The notes under the pieces were generated by a model. That model did no database searches. It saw only the letters and a list, made by a program, of their open reading frames with translations, and was not told the DNA's origin. The translations under genes and the position numbers were made by a program. Source: an uncultured Planctomycetales bacterium (GTDB taxonomy: Bacteria; Planctomycetota; Planctomycetia; Pirellulales; S012-138). From it: a stretch of 64,000 nucleotides of DNA. This document shows, one piece after another, positions 35,301 through 64,000 of the stretch (position 1 is its first letter; every line of letters starts with the position of its first letter). Location: positions 1,123 to 65,122 of the forward strand of contig CALJLD010000243.1 in NCBI GenBank assembly GCA_937982665.1, read 5' to 3'.

Positions 35301-35857
35301 TTGGGGAGCGGCAGCAATCTTGCCAGGTTCCACGCGCCATTGGCGTCGCACTCGGCCCGGATTCTTGGTCGTGTGATGACGAACGCTTCAATCCGCAGTG
35401 AGTCTTGCAATAAGTCTTGCAGTCCGGACTCGCTGTGGAGAAAGACTTCGTCGATATCGACCAGGACTGCTTCGGGGCCATCAACCTCTGGGTCCTGTAT
35501 TCGCAGGCCGCGAATGGAGATGCCCTCTCCTTCGATGAAGTGCGCCGTGCGGACGGCCACATCAAGTTCTGGATAACCTTGGGCAATCAACGTTTCCACG
35601 CGATTGCGGATCTCTTCGTCCAGCCGTCGGTCCAGGTAAAGCATCACGCCCAAGCCGATAACAAGCGCGAGCACGAGCCCCCACTTGAAACAAAACCAGC
35701 TTGAACGGACGAAGCAGTTAATTGACGTATTTCCTGGTAAGGACCGGGTTCTGCGAAAAGTGCCGGCTAATCGCTGCTCTTTCCAACGGCTACTGTTTTG
35801 CGACGACAGCGCACAACTCTCCCTTTCCCAAAATTGCATCGCGCGCGATCGCTCCAC
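32393..35857 (-). CDS. giant AsmA/TamB-like membrane-anchored protein
   Basis: One N-terminal TM helix, then a long beta-rich body. The N-terminal block (VAVRTAHFIEGEGISIRGLRIQD...ANGAWNLARLL) and C-terminal block (LNVTGPIADPQV) resemble AsmA/TamB. Start is GTG 35857 or ATG 35839. Confidence 0.65.
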   Translation of the reverse strand: MERSRAMQFWERESCALSSQNSSRWKEQRLAGTFRRTRSLPGNTSINCFVRSSWFCFKWGLVLALVIGLGVMLYLDRRLDEEIRNRVETLIAQGYPELDVAVRTAHFIEGEGISIRGLRIQDPEVDGPEAVLVDIDEVFLHSESGLQDLLQDSLRIEAFVITRPRIRAECDANGAWNLARLLPLPKLGNHPPFGGQLQNGLIEIVDTSKSPTSTLTLRDIHVTFQPLADLEKKPGSRTTVEYGTADFASQVSNETDVANSGVAAQNKSEDNKTAGTGMHFSGSLRGDRIHELKIVGDLFPGGHWRLAGEIDEIEVSPELHESLPSAVCPNSGPWGMLRAYASGTFAVEHVASRPEPWAYHADFSVKRGRVDDVQLPYPLTDLHAELRIHNGDLQISSGGARSRNTIFSLNGTGSLKQSLQAARIDVTARRLTFDQSLYASLPPKLQETWNKFLPAGEADIQTDIVFDGAEWRPVWVRADTSDLSFAYHKFPYRIQRAAGWLEMRELEGRRQRVSLGIRGHAEGVPVNIQADIVDPGPEYLGWMQVEGSHLKLSETMIAALPGNAPEVIRSLDPAGVFNVWMRFERQRPGDPQTRQMRLDVLDGAMRYVKFPYPILNVSGHVSLENDSWRFENFHGTNGGAHVHANATLEPTPLGNEFVLNINADNAALDEDLRSALPPATQLAWTDLRPRGEVDMNCKLKYLANQRALDLQIDVWPRQASCSLEPRQFPYRWENIGGKIVYNNGRIEFRRLRAKHGETNLQATGVFEGRGGEFLLRFDELAVDHVTADRDLRLALPVALRQAAIEISPEGPINLAGFLEFHRAAHPSAPMTARWNLDLFMHGNSIQVGKPLENIFGRVGLQGNYDGSKFVADGELELDSARLMDFQYNQIRGPIHIENSAVTLGDPGVFSGVGGSRGLDPRTHRHITAEFYGGRFLGDIIVSRGEQTEFTLRTQVDNADLSRFARDGLITGGEYKGRVFAWLNLRGAGVHARSLFGDGSVQLRDADIYELPLLVALLKVASLQTPDASAFTASNIDYRISGDRVYFNRLDFNGDAVSLIGRGEMDFDLNVNLSFGSMVGRSDRRIPILGDVLGEATKQFVKLNVTGPIADPQVTTETFPGVVKTLQQIQAELERSAAPPPRVPPVGTSPRRGRY

Positions 35858-36255
35858 GCAATTGAGAATTGGGCGAAGAATGCTACGTCCCTGGGACTTG
35901 TCAGGTCAACAACAACCGCCGGCGCGCAGCTAAGAATAAGCACAGAATGCGTTGCTAGCGGAGCGGCTTTAACATAAGTACCCTCACTCCAATGCTAGCT
36001 GGGCTTGCGTGGCGCTTTTGTCTGCGCTATGCGTTATGGCACACCAAGCGAGGCGTTACCGTAATCGCTCTAGGGACAATGGCCTGCCACGTACTAGAAT
36101 TGCGGCCCCATGACCACTGTCATGTCCCCAGTGAAATGGATTTCCTGACCCGACTTTTCTGACACACGCGCTTCGTCAAATCGAGCTGACAAGTTAGCGG
36201 TTTGACGTATCGTTCGCGTACAAGTCTTAGCCTCGAACTATCCAGGGTGGCAAGG

Positions 36256-39200
36256 ATGCGCTCTTCTCGTTCTGACGGTTCGTCCCGTTTGCCGTGGCGA
36301 AAAAACAAGTCATCACGTCCCAAGAAGCGACGACGTTTTGGCCGGCGAGAGCAACGCCCCGAGGAGGAATCGCGCAATCGCTCGCAAGATTCCGAGCGGT
36401 ATGAAGAAGGCTACTACGACGAAGACTCGCGCTATGCCGACGAGCATTACGATGGCGAACAATACGAAGAGGATCTCGAAGATTCTCGGTACGTAGAAGA
36501 CCGTCACAAGGGCCGACGACGTTCCAGGCGCTATGATGAACGTCATGATGATCGCTATGAAGACGAGCGATATGCCGACGATCGCTATGAGGAAGAGGAA
36601 TACGAAGAAGAACCGCCGCGCAAGCGACGCCGTTTCTCACTACCCAAGCGCAAGAAAAAGAAGCGCAAGACTGGCAAACAGACAACATCAACAGGCTCGC
36701 GCTTCCGCAACTTGAGCAACCGTACGAAGTACATCATGTACGGCGTCGCTGGACTCGCTTTGCTGGTGTTGTTCTTGCCGTCCATCATCGGCTTCACGAT
36801 GGGGGGAAGTTTTCTCGTTGCGGCGCTCGAGGACATCAACGGCACAGTGCAAGTTGGAGGCGCGTCGATGGGATGGTTCTCCTCGACGACATTCTACGAT
36901 GTCGAGATTCGTGACCGCTCAGGTGAAACTGTCTTAAAGACGCCGGAGCTTGGGCTCGATAAGACGGCGATGAGTCTCTACTTTGACTCGACGAACTTAG
37001 GGCAGGTGACGATCTCCAACCCTCAAGCGTTTGTGCATTTCGATCAAGATGGCAGCAACATTGAGGAAGTGCTTTCCGCCTGGCTGGAAGGCCCATCCAC
37101 GTTGGAAGCTCCTCGCCTTGCACTGGATGTCCGTGGAGGAACTGTCGAAATTGAAGATCGCCGTGCGAATGCCAAATGGCAATTCCATGATGTTCGAGTT
37201 GGTATGGACCTGGAACGTAACTGGTCTGAACCAATGAAGCTTCGCGCAGTCGCGAAGATGCCACAACCCGATGGCGCGACGGACTTTGATTTGCAGCTGA
37301 CGTTGGATCGTCGTGCTGGTCCCAATGGCTCCGTGCGACAAGAGGGCGATGCGCGGATTGAAACCGTCGATTTTCCTCTTGCGGCGTTTCAGCCTGTTGT
37401 GCGGCGCGCATTGCCGGACTCTTTCTTGCAGGGCATTGCCACGATGCAAACGGACTTCCGCTGGGGGAATATCGAAACTCCCGGCTGGAATATGTCGATC
37501 GACGGCCTGGTGGACGCTCGCGATGTTCGAATCACATCGCCAGAGTTGGGTGGAGACGAGATCTACCTTCGCACGCTAAGGCTGCCGATCAATATGGCCT
37601 ATGTTAATGACAGATTAACGATCGAACGCCTCGCATCCATCAGCGATGTGGGCCGTGTCGACCTGACTGGCAAAGTCGTGATCGACACTCAACAAGGGGT
37701 CATCACCGGACTGACGCAAGCGTTGGCCAATCAGGCGTATGAATTTGAAGGCAATGTCGACCTGGCCAAGCTGGCCGCGATCTTGCCGCGAACGATGCAC
37801 CTGCGCGATGGCTTGCAAGTTACGCAAGGAGATGTGCGTTGGAAGCTCTCGCATGCGGGGAGGGCGGGAGCCGGCGCCTGGTCGGGCTCGCTTGAAACAA
37901 CGCAATTGCGCGCGCAGCGTGGCGATGAAGTCATCGCCTGGGACAAGCCTATCACGCTGAACTTTGAGGCCAACGAGAGCGACGGCGGACTGCATGTGGA
38001 GACGCTGCACTGCCATTCCGAGTTTGTCAGCCTGGACGCGATGGGCGATATCAACAAGCTCGACCGAGAAACAGGCTACTTGGATCACTTCGACGTGGCC
38101 GGAGAGTTCAAGCTCGACAAGCTGTCCCAAGAACTCAACCGCTTTGTTGATTTCGGCCAAACAAACTTTGCCGGTGACGGTTACCTGTATCTCACGTGGA
38201 GGCGCCAACCCAACGGTGCCTTTGAAACCACGTGGGACGTCAACGTCGCCCAATTTGAAGTCGCGATGCAAGGCCACGCGCCCTGGCGAGAAGACAAACT
38301 CATCGCGCAAGGACGCGCTAATGGCCAATTTCAAAACCATGAATTGACAAGCCTGGACTTCGGCACGATGGAACTGCGCAGCCGGGTGGATACCGTTCAG
38401 GCGGAAATCATCAGTCAAATCCGGCGGCCAACCGCCAGGTCGCAATGGCCGCTGCATGTGACGGTTCGTGGCACAACAACAAGTTGGCTGGACCGCGCGC
38501 AAATGTGGATCGATGGCGCTTCGCGCTGGAACGGTCGCACCGAAGGCGGACTGGACGTCGAAGCAATCGTCAACGTCTCGCCAAGGCAAGTTACTGTCGA
38601 AAGCGGCAGCAAAGTCCGTATCAGCGATTTCGTGCTCGAGACCCGGAATTGGAAAGTGGAAGAACCACAGCTTGAAGCCACCCTGGCCGCCGCGTGGGAC
38701 CCGGAAACGGACCTGATGAACATCGTGGAGATGAAAGTCGTTACGCCCACGGGCGAAATCAAAGCTCGCGACGCTCGCGTGCAATGGCCCGCAGGTGGAC
38801 CACCAAACGTCACGGGAACAGCAAATGTCACCGGCGATCTCACAAAGATCCAAGCCTGGCGGCGTATCCCAGCCAAACACGGGATGGCCGGACAACTCGT
38901 CGGGGATGTCTCCATCTCCAACAACAACGGCGCATTGGTTGCCGATTGGCGAGGCCGAATCAACAACTTCAGTCTGCAAACAGGAGAATCCGCTACCTGG
39001 AGTGAGCGGCTCGTCGGTATGCAGGCTACGGCCAGATACGATCGCCGCGCCGATCGCTTACAGATCTTACAGGCGGTGTGGGAATCAAACGCCCTGACCT
39101 GCAACGCAACGGGTGATATCGCCCGTGCTCGAACAGATCGCGAGCTGACGTTGGCGGGAACCGTGAGCTACGATCCGAGGAAACTTGTCGGGTTGTTGCG

Positions 39201-40200
39201 GCCGTACTTTGGCGATGCCGTCCAACTCAACGCGACGCGCCAGCCGCACGAGTTCCGCCTGCATGGCGTGTTGACTCCCACTTCGTCCGCATTGGGAACA
39301 CCGCTGACGGGCAGCTTCATCACCCGCGCCGATGGCGATGCGGAGATGTCATGGACCAGCGCGGAGATCTACGGATTCCGCACCGGCGCGGGCCAGGTTC
39401 GCTTCAGTCTGGCCGAAGGCAAGGTGGTCATGCATCCATTGGATCTGGCCGTCAATGGCGGACGGCTGAGCCTGGGTGGTTGGTTGGACATGCTGGATGA
39501 GCAACCCAAGATCAATGTGGAACCGGGGCGCGTGTTGGATCATGTCACGCTGACGCCGGATGTGGCTCGCTTTGGTAGTTTGAAGTATGTCGTTCCTTGG
39601 ATTAACGGGGTCACAGCCGCGCAGGGAACTTTTTCCTTGGATGTGGGCGGCGCTCACATTCCCATACAAGATCCGGTTCATGCAGAAGCTGCGGGAAATG
39701 TTGTAGTGCATGATATCGTGTTTGCACCGGGTCCACTCTTGCGGCAAGTTGGCTTTTGGGCTGACCTGGTCCGCCAACTGGCCGGCAAACCTACACAATT
39801 CTCTGATCTGCAAGCCGTGCGATTGCTGAATGAATCGAAGGTCGTCTATCGCGTTGTCGATCAACGCGTCTATCACCGAGACCTGGTGTTGGTCTTCGAC
39901 AATATGACAATCGAAACGCAAGGCTGGGTTGGATTCGATCAAAAGCAGGCGATCCTCGCACGAATCAAAGCGCCCGATCTGTTCCAGGAGATTCCCGGTG
40001 GTTCGGCTCTCGTACAAAATGGCTTGGAAGTCCCCATCAGCGGAACGATGTCGCAGCCCACGCTGGATGTGAATCGCATTCAACAGCAATTGGGCGGCAC
40101 GGCGCAATCGTTGTTGCAACGCGCGGCTGCCAGCGGCAATCGGATGCTTGCAGACGAGCTTGAGCGCCAACTGCGCAGGTTGTTGGCGCCAATTCGGTAA
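36256..40200 (+). CDS. giant AsmA/TamB-like protein with a highly charged cytoplasmic N-terminal tail
   Basis: An N-terminal tail of about 160 aa in the 36202 ORF frame (about 140 aa from the called ATG) rich in R/K/D/E/Y, then one TM helix (YGVAGLALLVLFLPSIIGF). An AsmA-like N-terminal block follows (GTVQVGGASMGWFSSTTFYDVEIRDRSGETVL...DGSNIEEVL), then a long beta-rich body. Confidence 0.65.
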   Translation: MRSSRSDGSSRLPWRKNKSSRPKKRRRFGRREQRPEEESRNRSQDSERYEEGYYDEDSRYADEHYDGEQYEEDLEDSRYVEDRHKGRRRSRRYDERHDDRYEDERYADDRYEEEEYEEEPPRKRRRFSLPKRKKKKRKTGKQTTSTGSRFRNLSNRTKYIMYGVAGLALLVLFLPSIIGFTMGGSFLVAALEDINGTVQVGGASMGWFSSTTFYDVEIRDRSGETVLKTPELGLDKTAMSLYFDSTNLGQVTISNPQAFVHFDQDGSNIEEVLSAWLEGPSTLEAPRLALDVRGGTVEIEDRRANAKWQFHDVRVGMDLERNWSEPMKLRAVAKMPQPDGATDFDLQLTLDRRAGPNGSVRQEGDARIETVDFPLAAFQPVVRRALPDSFLQGIATMQTDFRWGNIETPGWNMSIDGLVDARDVRITSPELGGDEIYLRTLRLPINMAYVNDRLTIERLASISDVGRVDLTGKVVIDTQQGVITGLTQALANQAYEFEGNVDLAKLAAILPRTMHLRDGLQVTQGDVRWKLSHAGRAGAGAWSGSLETTQLRAQRGDEVIAWDKPITLNFEANESDGGLHVETLHCHSEFVSLDAMGDINKLDRETGYLDHFDVAGEFKLDKLSQELNRFVDFGQTNFAGDGYLYLTWRRQPNGAFETTWDVNVAQFEVAMQGHAPWREDKLIAQGRANGQFQNHELTSLDFGTMELRSRVDTVQAEIISQIRRPTARSQWPLHVTVRGTTTSWLDRAQMWIDGASRWNGRTEGGLDVEAIVNVSPRQVTVESGSKVRISDFVLETRNWKVEEPQLEATLAAAWDPETDLMNIVEMKVVTPTGEIKARDARVQWPAGGPPNVTGTANVTGDLTKIQAWRRIPAKHGMAGQLVGDVSISNNNGALVADWRGRINNFSLQTGESATWSERLVGMQATARYDRRADRLQILQAVWESNALTCNATGDIARARTDRELTLAGTVSYDPRKLVGLLRPYFGDAVQLNATRQPHEFRLHGVLTPTSSALGTPLTGSFITRADGDAEMSWTSAEIYGFRTGAGQVRFSLAEGKVVMHPLDLAVNGGRLSLGGWLDMLDEQPKINVEPGRVLDHVTLTPDVARFGSLKYVVPWINGVTAAQGTFSLDVGGAHIPIQDPVHAEAAGNVVVHDIVFAPGPLLRQVGFWADLVRQLAGKPTQFSDLQAVRLLNESKVVYRVVDQRVYHRDLVLVFDNMTIETQGWVGFDQKQAILARIKAPDLFQEIPGGSALVQNGLEVPISGTMSQPTLDVNRIQQQLGGTAQSLLQRAAASGNRMLADELERQLRRLLAPIR

Positions 40201-40226: not shown

Positions 40227-41687
40227 TTACGTGGTCAGATCACCTTCGCGGAAGGGATTTCGGCCGCGCGGGAGAAATTTGCACATCAAGATGCCACCAA
40301 AGTACAAGACGACCAACGGCGCGGCCATCAATACCATGCTCCAGGGGTCGGCCGGCGTCAGCAGCATGGCGATCACGCAAATCACAAGCACCGCAACTCG
40401 CCATTTCTTCAGGTAGGCAGAAACTGAGAAGATGCCAATCCTTTGCAGGAACAGCATCACCAAAGGCAACTGGAACGAAATGCCAAAACCAATTGGCAGG
40501 AACAGCGCCATGCCAAACCATTCGCTGATGCGAATGTCCGGATCTATTCCGGTGCCGGCATTGAAGCTCAGCAAAAAGCCAATCACGTAATCGAACACAA
40601 AGAAGAAACATAACGCCGCGCCGCCCACGAACAGCAAAATGCTGATAGGCAGGTAGAGGTGAATGTAACGACGCTCGTGCTTGTAGAGCCCCGAGGCGAC
40701 AAAATTCCAGATTTGCCAAAACACCCACGGGCTGGCAACCACTAGTGAAGCCATGATCGCGGCCTTCAACCAAATCATGAAGGCTTCATGGACACCCAAG
40801 CTCTTGACTGAGATGCGCGGATCATCCTCAACCGGATGCCAACGAATGAGCATCATCATGGACTTGCGCCTGGGACCGGCAGCGATCATATCGGGGAAGG
40901 CTGCCGTCAACAGCAATGCGTTGAATTGCAACGGTGTGTACTTCGCCCGGTTGGCCTCCACATGTTCCAGCCTTGCGTGTTGGCGTTTCGCCAGGCGGTC
41001 CGCGGGAAGAAAGTCCGTTAGGGGATCGTTGTCCCGAATGTCATCAAAATCTTCGGCGCGATAAAAGTCGGCGTCGTCCAAAATGAATTGTTTGATCGCT
41101 GCCGCAAGGTTTGCGCGATCCGCATCCGAAGGAGTGCTACCGGCGATCTTGACAACAAGCGCTTGAGCGTTGGCATCCAACAGGGACCACACACGCTTGC
41201 CAGGGTTTTCCCCACTGGCGTCTCGCCCATCGAGAATCGACTGCGCCAACAACTCTGGCTCCAAGATATCGCTCCGCGCGAAATCCGGAATAACAGCGGT
41301 TGCGGCGGCGGTTCCATAGAGTCGCGAGAGCGATGCCCAAGTTTGTCGTGGATCAACGTAGTCAACGTCTGGCAGCAAATGGTCGACAGTAATCGCCTCG
41401 CGGATCAAGCCGATATCGGGGGCTTCCTGCCCAGCTTCCTCCAATTTCGCGATGCTCTCCTCCATCCGCACTTCGGATTGTAAGAGGTAGAACTCCTGCA
41501 AGGACTCGCCCAGCGGACCCTCAATGAAATGGATCACGGCGTCCGGAACACCGAAAAGCAACACCAACGCAAAGGCGATCGCGACTCCCAACAGCGCTCG
41601 GAACAGGCACACCCGCAATTCATCCAGGTGTTCCCCAAACGTCATAGTGGAATCGGCGAACAGATCTTGATCCGATTTGCGCTGCAT
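40227..41687 (-). CDS. tatC: twin-arginine translocase subunit TatC with a large loop insertion
   Basis: FGEHLDELRVCLF, and LYKHERR identical to E. coli TatC. Six TM helices. 486 aa compared with about 258 aa in E. coli. Confidence 0.9.
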   Translation of the reverse strand: MQRKSDQDLFADSTMTFGEHLDELRVCLFRALLGVAIAFALVLLFGVPDAVIHFIEGPLGESLQEFYLLQSEVRMEESIAKLEEAGQEAPDIGLIREAITVDHLLPDVDYVDPRQTWASLSRLYGTAAATAVIPDFARSDILEPELLAQSILDGRDASGENPGKRVWSLLDANAQALVVKIAGSTPSDADRANLAAAIKQFILDDADFYRAEDFDDIRDNDPLTDFLPADRLAKRQHARLEHVEANRAKYTPLQFNALLLTAAFPDMIAAGPRRKSMMMLIRWHPVEDDPRISVKSLGVHEAFMIWLKAAIMASLVVASPWVFWQIWNFVASGLYKHERRYIHLYLPISILLFVGGAALCFFFVFDYVIGFLLSFNAGTGIDPDIRISEWFGMALFLPIGFGISFQLPLVMLFLQRIGIFSVSAYLKKWRVAVLVICVIAMLLTPADPWSMVLMAAPLVVLYFGGILMCKFLPRGRNPFREGDLTT

Positions 41688-42050
41688 CCGAACTGCCTGG
41701 GGAATGAGGGAAATGCACGGGTAAGCCGATAATATCAAGCCGTCTTAGAAGCGACAATGATGCGTTCGGCTGGGCAGATACATGCTGGGCGGAGTTTGCG
41801 CATCGGGACACCGCGCCCACAATGACTGGCACGCGAGATCTTAACGATGCGCTTTTCGATCACATGGCGGTGGGACAACAAACTGCATTTGTCTAACGCG
41901 GGAATTCTTCAGCTGCACTCAAGAAACTTAATGGGCAAACTGCAATCAAACGACGACGTACCGGTAGCCGCCGGTTGATTCTTTGCTCATGACATGCAAG
42001 ATCATCCCCAGCCAGTCCGCGTGTGTGCTAACTCGACCGTGGGAGCGGAG

Positions 42051-43142: not shown

Positions 43143-43562
43143 ATGGCAGGGATTCAGGCTCCCACGCAACGCGAATTGGAAATCCTCAAGATTCTTTGGC
43201 GGAATGGTGAAGCAACCGTCCGCGAGGTCTACGAGGAACTCCGCAAAGAGCTCGCGATTGTGCAAAACACCGTCCAGGCGTTCTTGCGCACCATGGAAGA
43301 GAAAGGCCAGGTGGAGCATCGCGTGGAGGGGCGAACCTTCATCTACCGCGCGGCGATTGAGCCCGAGGATACACGGCAGCGATTGGTTGACCGGGTGTTG
43401 AATCGTGTGTTCGACGGCGCTTTGGATCAGCTTGTGCAAAGTGCGTTGTCATTGCGGCAGCCTTCGAATGCGGAATTGGAGCGACTGGAACGCTTGATTG
43501 CGGAAGCCAAAGCCAAGGATGCGAAGAAGGGGCGAGCAAGCAAGAAGAAATCGCCAGATTGA
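43143..43562 (+). CDS. BlaI/MecI/CopY family transcriptional repressor
   Basis: The winged-helix N-terminus (TQRELEILKILWRNGEATVREVYEEL) is typical of Penicillinase_R. Sits directly upstream of an M56 peptidase gene. Confidence 0.88.
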   Translation: MAGIQAPTQRELEILKILWRNGEATVREVYEELRKELAIVQNTVQAFLRTMEEKGQVEHRVEGRTFIYRAAIEPEDTRQRLVDRVLNRVFDGALDQLVQSALSLRQPSNAELERLERLIAEAKAKDAKKGRASKKKSPD

Positions 43563-43627
43563 ACAGCGCTACGTTGTCCGTCCTTGAATTGGCCCTCGAG
43601 ACGTTTTCCAGACCTAACGGATCAGCC

Positions 43628-45940
43628 ATGTCAGCATTCATCGAATTCCTTGCCACAAACGGCTATCCGCTACTGCTTGCGACCGCGGTCCTGCTCGCGG
43701 TTGGCTCTTTGGCGATGATCCTGCATCGCTCACCCGGCCATCGACAGCGAATCGGCGAAGCGGCCATCGCAGCGACGCTGATCCTGATCGCACTCGCCGT
43801 GCTTCCGTTGCCGCGGTCAAACGTAGGGAGTTGGATTGTCAGTTGGGAAGGCTCCAATGACGATGGAAAGCTCACAGCGGTCGATTCTCATTCCGATCAT
43901 GTCGCACCGGTTGGATCTTCAAACCAGACAAACGATCTTGCGTCAACGCTGCCCGCCGCAACTGACACGACGCCCGATCTGGTAACAGGTGATAGCGAAG
44001 ATGGGCAATCAGACATCGGGGCATCGACAAGCGATTTCGGTCCTGCATTACCGCTTGCCGATGGCTTCGGCGAATCAGACGCTGACCTGTCACCGATTGT
44101 GGGAGCAACCCTCGGCAACGATGTAGCTCTGGAACACCTCAAGCCACACAACAAGCCTATCGGCGAAGCGCGAAGTGCTACGAATCGCGAGCAATCCGCG
44201 ATTGAGGCGGGACCGCTTCCATTCGACGCCACCGACTTGTCATCTAGCCAACCAGAAAGCCTAACAACACCGGGGATTCGCAGCAGTCAGGAAAGCGATG
44301 CACGATCAACATTTGCCTGGGTTTTTCTGACCGGCAGTTTGGCTTGTTGTGCATGGTTGCTGCTTGGCCGGCTTCAGCTTTGGCGTTTGGCGCGTTCTGC
44401 CAAGACCGCGAACGAGGCAATCCTTGCAACGACGCGTGCGGCCCTGAATCCCAGAACGGGGTCTCGCGTGCGTGTGATGATCGCCGAGCGTTGTCCTCGG
44501 CCGGTCACTTTCGGCATCTTTCGCCCAGTCATCATCTTGCCGGCGAGCCTATGCAGGGCTTCGTCGGCAGCTGCTTTAGCCCACGTCTTGCGGCATGAGT
44601 GTGCTCACATCAATCGCCGTGACGCGGTTGGGCAACTCCTGACCAACCTGGCATTGCCGCTCTTGTGGGTGCATCCGCTGTATTGGTTCATTCGCATTCG
44701 CATTCGGATGGATGCGGAATTGATGGCGGACGATTGGGCGGCCGGGCAAAGCTCGCCTGTGGAATACGTGGAACAACTTGTCCAGCTGGTTCGCCGACGT
44801 CGTGGGCTTCGCCTGGCGACTGTCGGCGGTTTGGGGCTATTTGGTTCTCAATCGCAATTTACCCGAAGAATGGAGATGCTCATGAAACGATCCACCCGCT
44901 TGCCAGCACGCTGCTCTTCCCTATGGAAGAGCGCACTGCTCGTGCTGTTTTGCACCGCGGCGCTAATTGCCGCGGACGCTGTTGGCGGGCGCCAGGCGGC
45001 CGCCCAGCGAAATGACGATCAGGCGCATGCCGAAATGAGCCGACGCCTGGAAAACCTCTTGGATGTAGTCGCGAAGCTCGAAGCGCAAACCGCGGAAGCG
45101 ATGGCGCACGCCAACGATCAGAAAGCGCGTGCGAACGCCGCCGAGCAAAAACTGGCCGACATGGCCGCGCAGCTTGAGCAAGTCAGGCACCGCAATGCGC
45201 AGAATGAGCAGCAAGCCGCTAATCGCAACGCGCAACAAGCCGACAATGCTGCCGCGCAGATGGCCACGCTGCAGCAAACCACGCAACGGTACAGCGACGA
45301 CATCAATAAGTTGAAGTCCGTCATCAATGATCTGCAGCAAGAAAATGCCGTGCTGCGGAATGAACTTGAGCACGCCAAAGCTGCCGGCGGTCCGCCCAAC
45401 CCGTCAGAAAACGAGGCTAGCAAGCAAGCGGACCCGTTTGCCGCAAATCCGCCCGTCAATGCGGGTGATCCCCTCGTCCGCGACGCCGCCAGCAAGGATC
45501 TGCCTACGGCCAATTCCCCGTTTGCGAACTCGCAGCCAACCGCATTGTCGAGCAGTGCCGCGAACAGCGGCACCGACATCGATATTTTGGGTCTGGCGAC
45601 GGCAATTGCAGACGGTGTGGGCAACCTTCGCAAGGCCGAAATCAACCTCGCTCATCTCCGCAGAAGTGTTGCAGCCGGGGCCAGCAATGAAGCAGATGTC
45701 CAAATTGCTGAGATTGAATTCGAGACGCAGCGCAACAAGCTGGAACTCTACCGCTCACTTGCGGAAGTCACGCTCGAATCCGCTCACTCGCGGCTGGAAG
45801 CTCTGAAGGAGCAGTTCGACCACACCGCTAAATTGGCTGCACAGGGATTTGTAACTGACGGTGAGCTTCGTCTGGCGAAAATGCGGCTTGAACAAGCCGA
45901 GTCCAGAGTGCGCGTCGTCGAGCGACTGCTATCGCAATAG
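43628..45940 (+). CDS. M56 (BlaR1-like) metallopeptidase/signal transducer with a long coiled-coil C-terminal extension
   Basis: HEXXH as VLRHECAHINRRD. N-terminal TM helices, an acidic disordered loop, and a Q/A/N-rich coiled coil of about 300 aa. An alternative TTG start at 43559 overlaps the blaI-like stop. Confidence 0.82.
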   Translation: MSAFIEFLATNGYPLLLATAVLLAVGSLAMILHRSPGHRQRIGEAAIAATLILIALAVLPLPRSNVGSWIVSWEGSNDDGKLTAVDSHSDHVAPVGSSNQTNDLASTLPAATDTTPDLVTGDSEDGQSDIGASTSDFGPALPLADGFGESDADLSPIVGATLGNDVALEHLKPHNKPIGEARSATNREQSAIEAGPLPFDATDLSSSQPESLTTPGIRSSQESDARSTFAWVFLTGSLACCAWLLLGRLQLWRLARSAKTANEAILATTRAALNPRTGSRVRVMIAERCPRPVTFGIFRPVIILPASLCRASSAAALAHVLRHECAHINRRDAVGQLLTNLALPLLWVHPLYWFIRIRIRMDAELMADDWAAGQSSPVEYVEQLVQLVRRRRGLRLATVGGLGLFGSQSQFTRRMEMLMKRSTRLPARCSSLWKSALLVLFCTAALIAADAVGGRQAAAQRNDDQAHAEMSRRLENLLDVVAKLEAQTAEAMAHANDQKARANAAEQKLADMAAQLEQVRHRNAQNEQQAANRNAQQADNAAAQMATLQQTTQRYSDDINKLKSVINDLQQENAVLRNELEHAKAAGGPPNPSENEASKQADPFAANPPVNAGDPLVRDAASKDLPTANSPFANSQPTALSSSAANSGTDIDILGLATAIADGVGNLRKAEINLAHLRRSVAAGASNEADVQIAEIEFETQRNKLELYRSLAEVTLESAHSRLEALKEQFDHTAKLAAQGFVTDGELRLAKMRLEQAESRVRVVERLLSQ

Positions 45941-53367: not shown

Positions 53368-54780
53368 ATGACAACAATACGAAGACTTCGCGGAAACAGA
53401 ACCAAATCGCTGCAATCGCGGCGGGGCACAATGCTTGTCCTTTCAACCGTATTCCTGGTCATTATGATTGGGTTTATTGCGCTTGCTTTGGACACCGGCT
53501 ATATTGCGTCCGTCAAGACAGAGCTGAAACGCGCGACAGACGCTGGAGCCTTGGCGGGTGCTGGCGCGTTAGTTGACGGGCAAGAGTCAGCAACAGAGGA
53601 AGTGCTTGAGTTCATCCAAGCCAATTCCGTTGGCGGAAGAACCATTGATGCGGACGACATCACCATCACGTATGGCAGTTGGGATCCGCAGACCGGATCC
53701 TTTACAGCCGGTGGTGACCTCCCGTCGGCCGTCCGGGTGCAGGTCAACCTCAATGATTCGCCTTTGTTCTTCGCACGCATCTTTGGCCAGGAGGACTTTG
53801 ATCTGGCTGATGAGTCCATCGCTATGTACCAGCCGCGAGACATCATGCTCGTGCTGGACTACTCTGGCTCAATGAATGACGACAGCGAGTTGAAGTCTGA
53901 GGGCTCAATGGGTTGGTCAGCCATTGACACCAACATGCAGGAAATCTACGCGGAACTTGGCAGTCCCACGTTCGGCAGCATGCAGTGGGATCAGTCTTTG
54001 CCGTCCTATTGGAGCAACTCGTACGTCCGCTCCTACCTTGGCTTGAATAGCGTTTCATACCCCTATCCCGGCGGAAGCTGGTCGGATTACGTCAGCTATG
54101 TACAGGGCAGCAGCATTCCAGACGATTACGAAGACCACTTCGGTTATAAGACGTGGATCAACTACTTACTGGCACGGCGAGAATCCTACTCTGAAACGCC
54201 TGACTTGTGGATGACCAGCGAGCAGCCGATCACGGCGTTGAAGAATTCCGTCACGGTTTTCATGGCCTACATCCAAGAAGTGGATACCGACGATCGCCTG
54301 GGTCTGTCGGTCTACACCGCGAGCGACGGCACAGCCGTTCTCGAGCACGAACTCACGAATGACTTTGATGCGGTAGAAACAACATCGCGACAAAGACAAG
54401 CCGGCCATTACCAGGCTTACACCAACATTGGTGATGGTATGGCAACGGCTCTGGAAGAGATTCAAGAGCATGGCCGCACCGGCGCGTTCAAGATGATCGT
54501 GCTGATGACCGATGGTATCGCGAATCGCCCCTACAACACCAGCTACGCTGAGGACTACGCCCTCGACAAAGCACAAGAATGCGCGGACGCCGGCGTTCCC
54601 GTTGTGACTATCAGTCTGGGCGCGGGCGCCGACATCGATTTGATGGATTCCATCGCCAACTTAACCGGCGGAGTCCACTTCAACATCCCCGGCGGTCAAA
54701 CCGTTGAGGACTATGAAGAGGATCTCAAAGACGCTTTCCGAGAGATCGCTGACGATCGTCCGCTCAAGTTGGTCAAGTAA
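53368..54780 (+). CDS. TadG-like (Tad_N) N-terminal anchor fused to a vWA domain
   Basis: RRGTMLVLSTVFLVIMIGFIALALDTGYI...LKRATDAGALAG resembles the TadE/TadG N-terminal region. vWA MIDAS block DIMLVLDYSGSM. Confidence 0.78.
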   Translation: MTTIRRLRGNRTKSLQSRRGTMLVLSTVFLVIMIGFIALALDTGYIASVKTELKRATDAGALAGAGALVDGQESATEEVLEFIQANSVGGRTIDADDITITYGSWDPQTGSFTAGGDLPSAVRVQVNLNDSPLFFARIFGQEDFDLADESIAMYQPRDIMLVLDYSGSMNDDSELKSEGSMGWSAIDTNMQEIYAELGSPTFGSMQWDQSLPSYWSNSYVRSYLGLNSVSYPYPGGSWSDYVSYVQGSSIPDDYEDHFGYKTWINYLLARRESYSETPDLWMTSEQPITALKNSVTVFMAYIQEVDTDDRLGLSVYTASDGTAVLEHELTNDFDAVETTSRQRQAGHYQAYTNIGDGMATALEEIQEHGRTGAFKMIVLMTDGIANRPYNTSYAEDYALDKAQECADAGVPVVTISLGAGADIDLMDSIANLTGGVHFNIPGGQTVEDYEEDLKDAFREIADDRPLKLVK

Positions 54781-58871: not shown

Positions 58872-59142
58872 GGTGAACGAGTGATTTTGGGCAATTGGTT
58901 TGTAAACCGGCAATTTCGCAAGTCTACGTCTAATCAGATGGCGAAGTACAGATCCGCAGTCGTGAAAACCTCGCAAAAAGTGAGTTTTTGGCTATACACC
59001 GCTAGCTATGCTAGCTAGCTTACAGTTCTGCGCAAAGAAACTGGTTGCCGGGACTCTGCCGATTATTCGGCCGAGTCGTGTCACATCTTACCGGTGGCCA
59101 GAAATCACATCTGTGTTTCCACGAGTTGAGTCGAGCTCTTCA

Positions 59143-60051
59143 ATGCGTCACCGCGCTCTGATTGGTTCCCTGGTTGTTCTGCTAGGGATTTGTCTTGCTC
59201 CAACCCAGGCTGGTTTGATCATCCAGCGCAATTTCACCGGCGGCGCTGCGCCAGGCAACATGGCCGGCGGCGGCAATCTCATCAACGTCTTCAATCGTGC
59301 GGCGGACTGGTGGGAGTCGGCTTACACGGATCCCAATGGCGATGGGACAGACTTCAACCTGTCGATCGATTACCAATGGGCAGGTTTGGGCGGAGGAACG
59401 CTTGGTGTGCATCAGCTGACAGGCCAGGGCGGTTCGCCCAACCGCGAAACATCGGCGTTTATCCGCTTTGATAACGATGGCAGTTCCGTTTGGTTTGCGG
59501 ACCCTACACCAGGCGACAACTCCGAATACACCAACTACAACGAATTCTCAAACGACTTCGGCGGCGGAGAGTTGAATTCCGGCCGAGTCTTCAGTGGCGC
59601 CACAGGATTCGCGAGCGGTCGCTTTGACCTGCTGACCGTTGCCTTGCACGAAATCGGTCACGCATTAGGTCTGAGTTCCGCCAATAACGCGTTTCAAGCC
59701 GAGAACGCTGATGGCGACATTGATGTGACAACTGGTCCGTGGGATGGCGGATTTGCCGGAACTGTTTTGAGCACACGGAACGGTGCGCACCTGGGCGATG
59801 CCGGCAACTCGACCAACAACGCGCTGTATCTCAACATGGAGATGTACCCTTTCGCCAGCGCCAGCATCCGCAAATTTGGAAGCGCCGCGGACATTCTCGC
59901 CAACGCCCAGATCAGCCGCTTCCACAATCCAGTGCTTGCACCCGCTCTGACGGCTGTGCCAGAGCCTGCCACCCTGGTCGTTTGGTCGATCCTCGGCTTA
60001 TGCGGTGCTGGCTATCACCGTCGCCGTCGTCGATCTGCCGCAGCGGCCTAA
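59143..60051 (+). CDS. PEP-CTERM-anchored metzincin-like zinc protease
   Basis: Signal peptide. HEIGHALGLSS (HEXXHXXG), a downstream Met-turn-like EMYPF, and a C-terminal VPEPATLVVWSILGLCGAGYHRRRRR (PEP-CTERM). Confidence 0.75.
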   Translation: MRHRALIGSLVVLLGICLAPTQAGLIIQRNFTGGAAPGNMAGGGNLINVFNRAADWWESAYTDPNGDGTDFNLSIDYQWAGLGGGTLGVHQLTGQGGSPNRETSAFIRFDNDGSSVWFADPTPGDNSEYTNYNEFSNDFGGGELNSGRVFSGATGFASGRFDLLTVALHEIGHALGLSSANNAFQAENADGDIDVTTGPWDGGFAGTVLSTRNGAHLGDAGNSTNNALYLNMEMYPFASASIRKFGSAADILANAQISRFHNPVLAPALTAVPEPATLVVWSILGLCGAGYHRRRRRSAAAA

Positions 60052-60297
60052 GTGCCTAAAGTGCAGTCAGTGGGGATAATTCTGTGCATAGTATGGCGCA
60101 CTCGCTTGGTCGCCCCACCGTGCGCAAATCCCGCGGTTTCGGCTTGCTAACCTTGCCGCCGTTTAGCACTCGCGTTGACCGAAGTTTCGGCCAGACCTAG
60201 AATTGAGGAAGATCAGCCGGTGCGGATTTGTCCGCAATCACGACTCTTTGTGGTGTCCGGCATCGTGGAAGAGGCACAATCTGCGGGGTCTGCGTCG

Positions 60298-61359
60298 ATG
60301 AATCAGCCAAAACCCCAAAGCTCACGGGCGCAAAGTCCTCAGCCGGACCAAAGCCGTCCTGAAGCTCAAGCTCAGACTTCGGGAACGCAGAATTCGGGAA
60401 CATCGTCCAATGATTCCAACCAACCCACCGACGTTGGCGGCAAGACCGCGCTTCCGTCGTGGGTGATCTCGGTCGTTCTGCACGTTGTCTTGATCATTGT
60501 CGCGGCAATGACAATTCAATTGGGGCCAGTCGGTATGCAAGCCGATGACTCCACCACAGTCGGTGGTGAGATCGTCCTCAAGCAAATGACCGATGAAGGC
60601 GAAAAGTTCTTTACGGAAGAAGCCGCCAACGCGCTCGATCAGCTTGCCGACACGCCAAGCCCCGATCCTCTCAGCGATGCGCCTTCGGTCACGCCAAGCA
60701 GTAATCCACTCGAGCTTGACCTCATCGGCGCAACTTCGGACACCTCAACTGCCAGCGGTGGCGGAGGTCTGGCTAACATTCTTGGCAATCCGGGACAGCC
60801 GAAAATCAAAGGCCACACCTCGCGAACAACTTTCATGTCGATGGAGGCCGAAGGGAACAGCTTCATCTACCTGATTGATCGTTCCGCCAGCATGGGCGAT
60901 GGCCGCCGACTGAACTATGCGATCTCTCAAGCCAAAGCCAGCCTGCGGCACTTGAATGAGAACACGCGGTTCCAAATCCTGTTCTACAACGATCAGGTCT
61001 TGCCGTTCCGCATTCCCGGCAAGTCAGACCAAATGCACTTTGCCACGCAACAAAACCTTGCGCTGGCCACGCGGTTTCTTGACGGCGTGCCGGCCAACAG
61101 CAGCACGAGAAGTCGCCAGGCAATCATCAAGGCGCTTTCGTACGGTCCGGACGTGATTTTCTTTCTGAGCGATTCACAAAGTAACTTAAGTTACATCGAT
61201 CTGGATTCCATTCGCCGCAAGAACAACGGTGGCAGCGTGTCAATCAACGTGATTGAATTCGCACCATCCAAGGGCGATCCGGCCACAAACAAGTTGGTGG
61301 AATTGGCCGGACAGAACAACGGCAAGTACACCTTTGTCGGTACCGGCAACATTGACTGA
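60298..61359 (+). CDS. TonB-like N-terminal anchor and spacer fused to a vWA (MIDAS) domain
   Basis: TM helix LPSWVISVVLHVVLIIVAAMTI with S-x3-H (compare E. coli TonB LLSVCIHGAVV). Pro/Ser/Asp-rich spacer. vWA block FIYLIDRSASMG and FFLSDSQ. Confidence 0.7.
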   Translation: MNQPKPQSSRAQSPQPDQSRPEAQAQTSGTQNSGTSSNDSNQPTDVGGKTALPSWVISVVLHVVLIIVAAMTIQLGPVGMQADDSTTVGGEIVLKQMTDEGEKFFTEEAANALDQLADTPSPDPLSDAPSVTPSSNPLELDLIGATSDTSTASGGGGLANILGNPGQPKIKGHTSRTTFMSMEAEGNSFIYLIDRSASMGDGRRLNYAISQAKASLRHLNENTRFQILFYNDQVLPFRIPGKSDQMHFATQQNLALATRFLDGVPANSSTRSRQAIIKALSYGPDVIFFLSDSQSNLSYIDLDSIRRKNNGGSVSINVIEFAPSKGDPATNKLVELAGQNNGKYTFVGTGNID

Positions 61360-61381
61360 TCACCCCAGGAATCTCCACGTT

Positions 61382-62404
61382 GTGATTGCCCGCTTGCTGA
61401 TCAGTCTGATCTGCGTTGCCATCCTCTCGGCGGGTCTCGTGGATTCTTGTCACGCGCAAGATACCGTCTACGTTTCTTCGGGCGAAACCGGCGTCATCGG
61501 ATATTCAGGCGAGGTCGTTAGCTACACCGGCGAGCGTCTCGTGTTGAAGTTGTCCAACGGGACGGAGCGAACATTTCCCGGCAACACGAACATCGTTCGC
61601 ATCGACACCCAACATACGGCCGAATTTCGCGAAGCGCAAGTCCACTACGACTCCGGCGAGTACGAGCAGGCTCTGGAAAGTTACGAGCGGGCTCTTCAAA
61701 AAGAAAGTCGGGCTTGGGTGCAAAGGATGATTTTGGAACAGATCATCTATTGCGAGCAGAGTTTAGACCATTGGGAATCGGCGGCACGGCGCTTCTTGAT
61801 ATTGGTTTCGTCCGATCCCAAGACGCCATACTTCCCCTGTATCCCGTTGGCTTGGGTCTCTGACCCGCCGCTGGCTTCCCTTGAACGGCAGGCCAGGACG
61901 TGGTTGGAATCGCAGCAGCCTGTCAGCCAGTTGCTTGGGGCCAGCCACTTGCTAGCAACACAACGGGCCGACGCGGAACGTGTGCTATCCGACCTGCGAT
62001 TCCATGCCGATCAACGTGTGGCCGCGCTGGCGCGAATGCAACTTTGGCGGACCGATCTGCATCGGGCTGATGTGAGCCGCATTGCCGGTTGGGAAAAAGA
62101 TTTGGAACGATCATCGCACGCGCTGCGAGCCGGCGGTTACTTTTTGATCGGCTCGGCCAACGTGCAAATCAGACGTGCAGAGGCCGCCGCGCTCAGCCTG
62201 ATGCGAGTGCCCATTCATTATCCACGGCAACGGCGTTTGGTCGCTCGTTGCTTGATCGAATCCGGCCGACAACTGGAAGTTCTTGGACAAACCGGCGAAG
62301 CAACCCGGCTGTATCAAGAGTTGGTCGATCAGTTTGCCGCCTTCCCGGAGAGCGCGGAAGCCAGGTCTCGATTGGACAAACTCGCGGCCGGTCAAGAGAA
62401 TTGA
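61382..62404 (+). CDS. secreted TPR-like helical-repeat protein
   Basis: The GTG at 61382 has AGGAA about 10 nt upstream. Signal-like N-terminus IARLLISLICVAILSAGLVDSCHA. Helical repeats such as GEYEQALESYERALQ. Confidence 0.6.
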   Translation: MIARLLISLICVAILSAGLVDSCHAQDTVYVSSGETGVIGYSGEVVSYTGERLVLKLSNGTERTFPGNTNIVRIDTQHTAEFREAQVHYDSGEYEQALESYERALQKESRAWVQRMILEQIIYCEQSLDHWESAARRFLILVSSDPKTPYFPCIPLAWVSDPPLASLERQARTWLESQQPVSQLLGASHLLATQRADAERVLSDLRFHADQRVAALARMQLWRTDLHRADVSRIAGWEKDLERSSHALRAGGYFLIGSANVQIRRAEAAALSLMRVPIHYPRQRRLVARCLIESGRQLEVLGQTGEATRLYQELVDQFAAFPESAEARSRLDKLAAGQEN

Positions 62405-62505
62405 ATGCTGTTGAGGTCAGGCAGTGAGATAGCACCGTCCCTGAACTCTCAACAACTTCGCTCCCAACGAAAAGAATTGGCGAAACGAACAACGAGGAGA
62501 TTCGC

Positions 62506-63336
62506 TTGCCAGAAAAGACTTCACCAAATTCAGCGAGCCACAAAGTGCATTCCGGCATCAAACGGGGCTTGTTGGCATTCGCGCTTGTATTTGTCTTTGC
62601 TTTGCTGGCTGGCCAGGCGTCGGCTCAGCAAGGTTCCGGAGAGAATTCCGGCGCGCAAAATGGCAAGGCCGCGGAGAACGCCGCCCAGCCGGACGGGCGC
62701 GAAGGGTTTTGGCAAATCATCTTGGACAGCGGACCCGTTGGTCTGGTGATCCTGCTGCTTTCCATCGGCGGCGCGGCGTTGGTTGTGGAACATGTGATTC
62801 ACATCCGCGCCAAGGTGCTCATGCCTTCCGGGCTGGCGGACAAAGTGCGCGAGACGCTCAAGACCGGTCACGTTTCTCAGGCGATTCAGGAATGCCAGTC
62901 CGAGCCCAGCCTGCTTTCGTACATCATTCAATCCGGCCTGGCTGAGATCGACGGCAAATGGACATCGATTGAAAAAGCTATGGAAGACGCCACCGCGGAA
63001 CAGTCGGCTCGGCTGTATCGCAAAGTGGAATATCTTTCCGTGATCGGCAACCTCGCCCCCATGCTGGGTCTGCTGGGGACCGTCATCGGCATGGTCATGG
63101 CCTTTCGTGACGTATCCACGGCGCAAGGCGCCCCGCAAGCCAAAGAACTCGCCGAAGGTATTTACCTGGCGCTGGTTACCACAGTGGAAGGACTCATCGT
63201 CGCCATCCCGGCGTTGGCGGCATTCGCCTTCTTCCGCAACCGCGTGGACCAGCTTGTTGCTGAAACAGCGCAACAGGCCCTGCATGTGTTCACGCCGTTC
63301 AAGCGCTCGCGAATGGGCGGGGAAAGGAGCCGCTAG
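62506..63336 (+). CDS. exbB: MotA/TolQ/ExbB proton-channel protein
   Basis: TTG start with GAGGAGA 5 nt upstream. Signal-like N-terminus. Conserved block APMLGLLGTVIGMVMAF and three TM helices. Confidence 0.88.
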   Translation: MPEKTSPNSASHKVHSGIKRGLLAFALVFVFALLAGQASAQQGSGENSGAQNGKAAENAAQPDGREGFWQIILDSGPVGLVILLLSIGGAALVVEHVIHIRAKVLMPSGLADKVRETLKTGHVSQAIQECQSEPSLLSYIIQSGLAEIDGKWTSIEKAMEDATAEQSARLYRKVEYLSVIGNLAPMLGLLGTVIGMVMAFRDVSTAQGAPQAKELAEGIYLALVTTVEGLIVAIPALAAFAFFRNRVDQLVAETAQQALHVFTPFKRSRMGGERSR

Positions 63337-63743
63337 TGCGGTTGCCGAATCATCGCGAGCGTGGCAGCGTGGGCTTCAACATGACTCCACTGATTGACGT
63401 GGTGTTCCTGTTGATCATCTTCTTCCTGGTTTCCACACACCTGGCTCGTCAGGAAGTGGAACTGGGGCTGACTTTGCCATCCGCCACCACAGGCTACGAA
63501 AGCGACACCGTGCGGCGGATTGTGGTCAACCTGCTCTCCGGGGGAGAAATGAAGATCGGAGGGCAAGCCCTGACCGTGCCGGAATTGGAATCCGTGCTTG
63601 CCGGCGAGGCGGAAAAAGACATTGAAGTCCACATTCGCGCGGACTCAAGCACTCGCTATCAATTCGTCGAGCCGATCATGATCGCTTGTGCTCGCAACGG
63701 CATCTGGAACATTACCTTTGGCGTGACCAATCCCAATCGATAG
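63336..63743 (+). CDS. exbD: ExbD/TolR biopolymer transport protein
   Basis: GTG overlaps the exbB stop (TAGTG), with GGAAAGGAG upstream. TM helix MTPLIDVVFLLIIFFLV carrying the conserved Asp. Confidence 0.88.
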   Translation: MRLPNHRERGSVGFNMTPLIDVVFLLIIFFLVSTHLARQEVELGLTLPSATTGYESDTVRRIVVNLLSGGEMKIGGQALTVPELESVLAGEAEKDIEVHIRADSSTRYQFVEPIMIACARNGIWNITFGVTNPNR

Positions 63744-63758
63744 ACACGCCACAACGTC

Positions 63759-64000
63759 ATGAAACTCCCTCAACGAAACGATCGCGGCCGACTCGACGTC
63801 ACCATGACGCCGATGATTGACGTCGTGTTTTTGTTGCTGGTGTTCTTCATTTGGACGTCCAGTTTTCAGGCACCAGAGGATTCTCTGCCAACCACGCTTT
63901 CGCTGCAGGGTGCAAATGTCGAAATCGAGAATGTCGAGCCAAAGGACGACGCCGAAGAGCCGATCGTCGTCAAGGTTCGTGACAACGGCGGACAGCCGTC
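63759..64000 (+). CDS. exbD: second ExbD/TolR paralog (3' end truncated by the window edge)
   Basis: MKLPQRNDRGRLDVTMTPMIDVVFLLLVFFIW. The ORF is still open at the end of the window. Confidence 0.8.
   Translation, partial: MKLPQRNDRGRLDVTMTPMIDVVFLLLVFFIWTSSFQAPEDSLPTTLSLQGANVEIENVEPKDDAEEPIVVKVRDNGGQP

Follow-up and report, generated by a model that had tools for sequence, protein, structure and literature searches.

The Ton and Tol systems are so far the only established routes by which 5:2 proton motors send energy across the periplasm through a monomeric transducer. The "vWA force transducers" were described from genome analysis by Williams-Jones et al. (2025, Mol Biol Evol 42:msaf138, PMC12204202). 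These proteins are tethered to the inner membrane (IM). They combine an SHLS helix and a motor box, the latter within a disordered linker, with a C-terminal von Willebrand factor A (vWA) domain, and their genes are syntenic with a TPR gene, tolQ and two tolR genes; they occur in Proteobacteria, Planctomycetes, Verrucomicrobia, Bacteroidetes and Rhodothermaeota. In AlphaFold3 models of other members, the His of the helix docks at the site used by TonB and TolA. Our literature search found no other paper on the class, which so far is purely computational. Here we describe a locus at the 3' end of a 64,000-nt stretch of DNA from an uncultured Planctomycetales bacterium (assembly GCA_937982665.1, contig CALJLD010000243.1, positions 1,123 to 65,122 of the forward strand), which we call the window. 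The locus encodes an IM-anchored vWA protein together with tetratricopeptide repeat (TPR) proteins and an ExbB/ExbD-type motor. We conclude that it belongs to the published, computationally defined class, because every defining feature that we tested was present: a transmembrane (TM) helix with Ser and His, a motor-box strand, a C-terminal vWA fold, and linkage with two distinct, ancient exbD paralogues. Our evidence is wholly in silico and consists of gene content, folds, motif conservation and synteny.

Gene content and limits of the operon

The initial annotation of the window had reported five co-directional genes with short gaps or overlaps. We read every junction directly and found the five genes as described, separated by gaps of at most 101 nt or by a 1-nt overlap. 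The strings that had been quoted from the locus (WVISVVLHVVLIIV, DTPSPDPLSDAPSVTPSSNP, DRSAS and SDS) are all present in the sequence. The genes are as follows.

60298..61359, + strand: vWA force-transducer gene; ATG start, TGA stop at 61357-61359; 353 aa
61382..62404, + strand: small TPR gene; GTG start, 22-nt gap after the vWA gene; 340 aa
62506..63336, + strand: ExbB/TolQ-like gene; TTG start with GGAG 7 nt upstream; 276 aa
63336..63743, + strand: ExbD/TolR-like gene 1; GTG start, 1-nt TAGTG overlap with the TAG of the ExbB gene; 135 aa
63759..64000, + strand: ExbD/TolR-like gene 2; ATG start 15 nt after ExbD1; cut by the window end

Further components beyond the window end had also been anticipated, and a contig from the same sample and the same organism (L085) supplied them. 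The two contigs share the last 774 nt of the window, with 1 mismatch. L085 continues the operon (L085:533-3627) with a complete ExbD2 of 152 aa and, after a 14-nt gap, a TPR protein of 873 aa with a signal peptide, here called the large TPR protein. We considered the gene that comes next on L085, which encodes 217 aa, as a further member and rejected it: it has no homologue in the other loci, and hence the operon ends at the large TPR gene. Spacing and conserved order thus point to an operon of six genes, five in the window and the sixth just beyond it. L085 also has, ~8 kb beyond this point and on the other strand, a gene for a MoxR-type AAA+ ATPase (L085:8837-9913) that is not conserved with the operon.

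The vWA gene has two alternative starts: GTG 60220, which gives 379 aa and is the choice of gene callers on public copies of the contig, and TTG 60175, which gives the maximal open reading frame (ORF). We kept ATG 60298 because the N termini of the closest homologues line up with it. A sigma-70-like match, TTGACC-17-TAGAAT (10/12), lies upstream of the vWA gene at window 60175-60203 (+). Such sites are not above chance; if this one is real, the TTG 60175 start is excluded.

The vWA protein has a TonB/TolA-like anchor and a complete predicted MIDAS

To collect relatives, we scanned one genome per GTDB species. This gave at least 156 relatives, of which the best 80 loci were used, and all of these 80 are from Planctomycetota. 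ORFs were called in the neighborhoods and assigned to classes by hidden Markov models of the window proteins; a locus counted as informative if at least 4.5 kb of sequence lay downstream of the vWA gene (n = 56). Two sets of vWA homologues were also used: 33 from databases, for the family alignment, and 73 collected from genomes, to count residues of the metal-ion-dependent adhesion site (MIDAS). All named sequences among the 33 come from Planctomycetota. We modeled the vWA protein with AlphaFold2 (AF2) as a single chain, on the family alignment. Its parts are listed below.

60457..60519, + strand: TM helix, residues 54-74; helix in the AF2 model; S58 at 60469-60471, H62 at 60481-60483
60562..60582, + strand: motor-box-like beta-strand G89-K95 (GGEIVLK), 27 residues past H62; G89 invariant
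60646..60813, + strand: disordered periplasmic linker rich in Pro, Ser and Asp, residues ~117-172; pLDDT below 50 over 120-166
60820..61356, + strand: compact vWA domain, residues 175-353; MIDAS D194-x-S196-x-S198 at 60877-60891, plus T270 and D292

The single TM helix (ALPSWVISVVLHVVLIIVAAMTI) contains the Ser and His and has no Asp. An S-x3-H signature had been noted in this helix and its conservation proposed as a check. We observed the motif within a hydrophobic helix in 67 of 81 homologues; all 28 motor-linked homologues with an intact N terminus have it. When 20 N-terminal regions were aligned (mean column identity, 27%), only five columns of the N-terminal 170 residues proved invariant: P53, W55, S58, H62 and G89. 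The first four make up the start of the helix, LPSW-x2-S-x3-H, and a conserved strand (consensus VGIVLK) starts with G89. Using hhalign, we found S58 and H62 in register with S16 and H20 of E. coli TonB (P 0.0036) and with S18 and H22 of E. coli TolA (P 2e-04).

The conserved strand stands at a nearly fixed distance from the helix. Of 61 anchored homologues, 46 have its pattern, G-[VILE]-[VILAT]-[VILFM], at H+27 to H+30, and 33 have it exactly at +27. The equivalent strands lie at +25 from the His in TonB (I45-V50) and at +28 in TolA (I50-V55). The AF2 model of the window protein has strands at 91-98 and 101-106 and, over 91-116, a beta-hairpin plus helix with a pLDDT of ~70. The strand G89-K95 matches the motor box of the literature, a concept taken from PMC12204202. 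There are basic residues ahead of the TM helix and acidic ones behind it, so that an N-in topology with a periplasmic C terminus fits, as in TonB. The linker that follows is variable in length and sequence across the family alignment.

We then considered the C terminus, which the initial annotation had read as a vWA domain with an apparently intact MIDAS. Profile, model and structure search all agreed on the fold. The family profile matched the vWA domain of ITIH4 in the PDB at 1.1e-16, the AF2 model has a pLDDT above 90 over residues 175-350, and the top PDB matches returned by Foldseek are vWA domains (ITIH4, 2.5e-10; 4fx5, 1.9e-09; CLCA1, TM-score 0.8; BatB [3ibs], 2.4e-07). None of the MIDAS residues D194, S196, S198, T270 and D292 varies in the family alignment of 33 homologues, and in the genome set all five are kept by 73 of 73. 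Like the invariant N-terminal columns, this is not a chance signal. By sequence the MIDAS is complete, and metal binding is predicted. A Pfam scan of the protein had been expected to return a VWA hit and no TonB_C. The second half of this expectation held, with no TonB_C at E ≤ 0.1; the first half did not, since VWA_2 stayed below threshold at 23 bits against a gathering cut-off of 27. The protein has neither the TonB nor the TolA C-terminal domain and is therefore neither TonB nor TolA. A second, unrelated vWA-type gene lies elsewhere in the window (53368-54780, +) and encodes a Tad/TadG-like protein with a weak vWA signal (Pfam Tad, Tad_C, VWA).

Motor subunits and TPR proteins

The ExbB-like protein matches Pfam MotA_ExbB at 2.7e-30 and has an N-terminal signal-like segment. 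Its best PDB matches are TolQ (6.9e-09) and ExbB (4.2e-08), and against the NCBIfam TolQ model TIGR02796 it scores 76.5 bits, far below the cut-off of 221. Both ExbD-like proteins match Pfam ExbD (ExbD1, 4.3e-21; ExbD2, 1.4e-10) and have the TM Asp, in TPLIDVV and TPMIDVV, respectively; alignment of ExbD1 to E. coli ExbD shows this Asp conserved, and both paralogues keep it in all 25 loci that have both genes. Orthologues that occupy the same position reach a median of 126 bits, the two paralogues within a locus 38 bits. Hence, the ExbD1/ExbD2 pair is ancient, conserved and obligate-looking, which suggests, at the level of sequence, that the two may form a heterodimer.

The small TPR protein, periplasmic by its signal peptide, matches Pfam TPR_2 at 7.7e-07. 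Its AF2 model (pLDDT 88.8) has a signal helix, a five-strand beta domain (27-76) and a TPR-like solenoid of ~13 helices. Foldseek returned no specific structural relatives for it; there were generic TPR matches only, at E ~1e-03, and the generic matches include a periplasmic motor scaffold of C. jejuni (9hmf_K, E 4.5e-03). The C terminus resembles the YbgF/CpoB model TIGR02795 weakly (33 bits, E 7e-08; cut-off 90). The gene lies directly 3' of the vWA gene in ~45 loci.

A TPR protein of 820-960 aa follows ExbD2 in 12 of the 21 motor loci with at least 8 kb downstream. In the large TPR protein Pfam shows TPR repeats only, as it does in the downstream genes of relatives. At three loci (L011:10530-14072, L059:10671-14561 and L042:7065-10547) a single gene directly after the vWA gene encodes a fusion of the small and the large TPR protein (1160-1296 aa), with no ExbB/ExbD genes in between. 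The first ~360 residues of the fusion correspond to the small TPR protein (E 1e-54 to 1e-81) and the remainder to the large one (E 1e-88 to 1e-124). By the Rosetta-stone argument, a TPR fusion next to the vWA gene indicates joint action of the two TPR proteins with each other and with the vWA protein.

Gene order is conserved in Planctomycetota, and anchored orphans exist

Synteny of the vWA gene with exbBD in related genomes had been named as a check on the initial annotation. In 26 of the 56 informative loci, ExbB/ExbD genes lie downstream of the vWA gene, mostly in the order vWA-TPR-ExbB-ExbD-ExbD. In all, about 26-31 Planctomycetota loci show this order. The closest relatives hold this order (L084, 73% identity; L003, 39%), and it is maintained down to ~30% identity across many Planctomycetota lineages. 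In L003 a putative outer-membrane beta-barrel of the BBP7 family (L003:14013-15338; Pfam 1.4e-15) directly follows ExbD2 and replaces the large TPR gene. We rejected the BBP7 porin as a conserved sixth gene, since it was found in L003 only.

Perhaps a canonical TonB, encoded immediately downstream, served the motor instead? We found none there: L085 continues with ExbD2 and a TPR protein, and the downstream genes of relatives are TPR only. Pfam scans covering most ORFs of the 64-kb window gave no match to TonB_C or TolA. A canonical TonB or TolA near the cluster was accordingly rejected, being seen neither in these scans nor in the relatives' downstream genes nor on L085. No TolB, Pal or OmpA-like genes were found in any conserved neighborhood (window, relatives or L085), and no TonB-dependent transporter was found in the neighborhood.

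Anchored homologues without a motor nearby (orphans) form clades of their own in a rough neighbor-joining tree, and in one metagenome-assembled genome an orphan (L064) coexists with a motor-linked copy (L046). By analogy, orphan and motor-linked copies recall genomes with several TonBs and fewer ExbBD sets.

A minority of the homologues (L035, L047, L052, L061 and L071) are soluble vWA paralogues, with a cleavable signal peptide in place of the Ser/His anchor; in L035 an ExbB-ExbD-ExbD set lies ~6 kb upstream of the soluble paralogue. In L029, L030, L050 and L061 the vWA gene stands alone between def-fmt and the topoisomerase VI genes, and the TPR-ExbB-ExbD-ExbD-TPR block is missing. The same position is occupied by the full operon in other Pirellulales; in L061 it holds the soluble signal-peptide form without the Ser/His anchor. 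The conserved upstream genes def, fmt, miaB and glnE and the downstream genes for topoisomerase VI A/B were rejected as partners, as they are housekeeping genes and not functionally linked; they were identified by reading representative sequences, with no family scan.

A proposed mechanism

The initial annotation inferred that an ExbBD-type motor could be coupled to a MIDAS domain. Our in silico results support this; we ran each of the refutation tests that it had set out, and none refuted it. We therefore consider it likely that the operon encodes a Ton/Tol-type machine driven by the proton motive force, with the vWA "force transducer" as its output protein.

In such a machine, ExbB would form an IM pentamer around an ExbD1/ExbD2 heterodimer, both ExbDs keeping the proton-carrying TM Asp. 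The vWA protein, inserted N-in, would dock its TM helix on the outside of the ExbB pentamer via Ser58 and His62, as TonB and TolA do, and the motor-box strand, 27 residues past the His, would engage the periplasmic domains of the ExbDs. The disordered linker of ~55 residues would carry the vWA domain into the periplasm. There a divalent cation in the MIDAS would link it to an acidic residue on a partner, and motor action would pull on this bond. As partners or scaffold, the two signal-peptide TPR proteins would be the likeliest candidates, since they accompany the vWA gene also where motor genes are absent. What we infer here is the docking of the helix, the transmission of force, which ligand is bound and what the machine does for the cell; candidates for this role are envelope tethering, uptake, surface adhesion or motility.

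Several observations weigh against this mechanism. The hhalign matches of the helix to TonB and TolA are short and weak (P 0.0036 and 2e-04). Of the SHLS motif, the window protein keeps the Ser and the His only: the positions of L27 and S31 in TonB are A69 and I73 here, although the family consensus from the 33-homologue alignment, unlike the window protein, retains Leu at H+7. A search of the PDB with the full-length profile gave a weak match to TolA (E 0.018) that the N-terminal profile did not reproduce, so we set aside sequence-level homology of the N terminus to TolA and relied on the register of the motif instead. Half of the anchored homologues in informative loci (24 of 48) retain S-x3-H although motor genes are missing from their surroundings. 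The operon has no conserved outer-membrane component, the BBP7 porin being confined to one locus. Promoter and terminator scans gave counts not above shuffled expectation, and co-transcription as an operon therefore follows from spacing and conserved order only. Finally, PMC12204202 states that no phenotype is known for the vWA transducers.

Alternative explanations

Could the operon instead be a substitute for Tol-Pal? It would then tether or coordinate the outer membrane or peptidoglycan with the IM in budding division, and its TPR proteins would resemble CpoB/YbgF. ExbB is indeed best matched by TolQ (TIGR02796, 76.5 bits; PDB, 6.9e-09), the C terminus of the small TPR protein matches the YbgF/CpoB model TIGR02795 (33 bits, E 7e-08), and Planctomycetes lack Pal. 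However, the TolQ and YbgF scores fall far under the family cut-offs (221 and 90 bits), TolB, Pal and OmpA-like genes are missing from every conserved neighborhood, and the fold search with the TPR protein found generic matches only. This is a rival on the biological role and is compatible with the transducer mechanism; we hold it to be possible and rather improbable. We give slightly less credence to a static role, in which the vWA and TPR proteins form a scaffold or regulator: a periplasmic cage whose task is to position, anchor or gate the ExbBD stator, with the output encoded elsewhere. The analogy is with PflA and PflB, TPR proteins that scaffold MotAB stators in Campylobacter, and the generic Foldseek matches of the small TPR protein do include the C. 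jejuni motor scaffold 9hmf_K (E 4.5e-03). The persistence of vWA-TPR pairs and fused TPR proteins without adjacent motor genes and the absence of a conserved outer-membrane partner from the operon also fit a cage. But the TonB/TolA-specific S-x3-H helix and the motor-box strand at a fixed distance from it mark transducers and no known stator scaffold, in most planctomycetes there is no TonB or TolA that could be the client instead, and the invariance of the MIDAS argues for a specific ligand-binding step.

It could also be that the neighborhood is coincidental, the vWA protein being BatA-like and working with the TPR proteins independently of ExbBD, which would serve a conventional TonB elsewhere. 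Pairing of vWA and TPR genes is typical of Bat operons; BatB (3ibs, 2.4e-07) is among the Foldseek matches, half of the anchored homologues are not beside a motor, and a MoxR ATPase is encoded ~8 kb downstream on L085, on the opposite strand. Against this, S-x3-H is found in 28 of 28 motor-linked copies with intact N termini, many Planctomycetota lineages hold the gene order at identities as low as ~30%, the residues that are invariant in the N terminus coincide exactly with the elements by which TonB and TolA contact the motor, and neither MoxR nor DUF58 occurs in the conserved neighborhood. Pure coincidence of the vWA gene and ExbBD is unlikely, and we give this explanation very little weight.

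Implications

Planctomycetes lack Pal (PMC12204202, supplement), and most of them are without TonB and TonB-dependent receptors (Speth et al. 2012, PMC3422733). Hence, their ExbBD motors need another client, and the force-transducer mechanism, if true, would supply a task for the ExbBD motors in a phylum largely without TonB, TonB-dependent transporters and Pal. Among published experiments in the group, a paper on the essential genes of P. limnophila does not mention exbB/exbD, TonB, vWA or TPR genes, and an array paper on R. baltica reports a salt-induced exbB/exbD pair and a vWA gene of unrelated number, with no link shown between them.

A broader proposal builds on the force-transducer mechanism. 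The vWA transducer family may be the main means in Planctomycetota of delivering IM energy across an enlarged periplasm. By analogy with ExbBD serving several TonBs, one ExbB-ExbD1-ExbD2 motor may serve several paralogous vWA transducers, the orphans included, and each transducer may exert its pull through an integrin-like bond, bridged by metal at the MIDAS, that ties it to the TPR proteins or some component of the envelope. Because the strand that bears the D-x-S-x-S loop is also where the linker joins the vWA domain, tension could directly tune the affinity of the MIDAS. The outcome could be a periplasmic coupling that force regulates in the manner of a catch bond, for which neither Ton nor Tol has a parallel. 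Taken jointly, these suggestions are speculative, and we doubt that all of them hold.

The locus is a clean planctomycete example of the class. Residues S58, H62, G89, D194, S196, S198, T270 and D292 are candidates for mutagenesis, and the two TPR proteins are the first candidates for ligand or scaffold.

Other genes in the window

Immediately upstream of the operon, at 59008-60051 (+), lies a gene for a secreted metalloprotease-like protein (Peptidase_M10/NF038122) with a C-terminal PEP-CTERM signal. It is not conserved beside the operon in relatives, and we rejected it as a partner. Farther away, 43143-45940 (+) encodes a BlaI-like repressor (Penicillinase_R, 2e-26) followed by a BlaR1-type M56 peptidase/sensor of 793 aa, whose long C-terminal half has no assignment. 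Three ORFs of 1154, 1332 and 678 aa (32393-35857, -; 36202-40200, +; 22913-24949, +) have no or weak Pfam matches (DUF748 below the cut-off). At 40227-41738 (-), TatC makes up residues 297-473 of a maximal ORF of 502 aa, which has either a long N-terminal extension or an over-called start.

Comparison with known systems

The vWA protein resembles E. coli TonB in its N-in helix with Ser-x3-His, in a beta-strand at a similar distance after the helix, in a Pro-rich spacer and in its exbB-exbD linkage. It differs from TonB in that it lacks TonB_C and has a MIDAS-bearing vWA head, in that two different ExbD genes accompany it, and in that no TonB-dependent transporter was found nearby. With such a head, partner recognition cannot be the beta-strand augmentation of a TonB box; if our mechanism is true, the protein stands for a third class of transducer, one that grips its load via a metal-bridged acidic residue. 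The likeness to Tol-Pal and CpoB lies in a helix that aligns best with TolA, an ExbB closest to TolQ and an operon TPR protein with weak similarity to YbgF. Unlike Tol-Pal, the locus has no TolA C-terminal domain and no TolB or Pal.

Bat operons (BatA-E) also encode a membrane-anchored vWA protein together with TPR proteins, and Foldseek matched the vWA domain to BatB. Bat operons include MoxR and DUF58 and are not known to contain ExbBD, unlike the operon described here, in whose conserved neighborhoods MoxR and DUF58 are absent; a TonB-type Ser/His helix is not a known feature of Bat proteins. We do not count the locus as a Bat/MoxR-vWA system.

The Agl-Glt gliding machinery of Myxococcus, with the vWA adhesin CglB (PMC9946355), offers a parallel in parts list: a TolQ-like and two TolR-like proteins (AglRQS), several periplasmic TPR proteins and, at the load-bearing end, a vWA protein with a MIDAS. 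CglB is a separate outer-membrane lipoprotein and is not known to be fused to a TonB-like anchor, unlike the vWA protein of the window; the outer-membrane and cytoplasmic Glt components are not present in the neighborhood of the window operon.

A second family in PMC12204202, TPH-vWA, likewise has a membrane-tethered vWA protein encoded beside a tolQ-like gene. In those proteins SHLS is missing, the helix is an ExbD-like trans-pore helix with a conserved Asp, and tolR/exbD genes are absent from the neighborhood, whereas here there are Ser and His, no Asp and two exbD genes. The locus thus falls outside TPH-vWA and within the vWA force transducers. Even there, its layout departs from the published one: in the PVC group, PMC12204202 places the vWA gene downstream of TPR-tolQ-tolR-tolR, while in our operon the vWA gene comes first and a second, larger TPR gene closes the set. 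That paper is silent on MIDAS conservation, orphan paralogues and TPR fusions. To its description of the class we add the invariance of the MIDAS, the fixed spacing of the motor box, a second TPR gene that is fused to the first in some genomes, and many anchored orphan paralogues.

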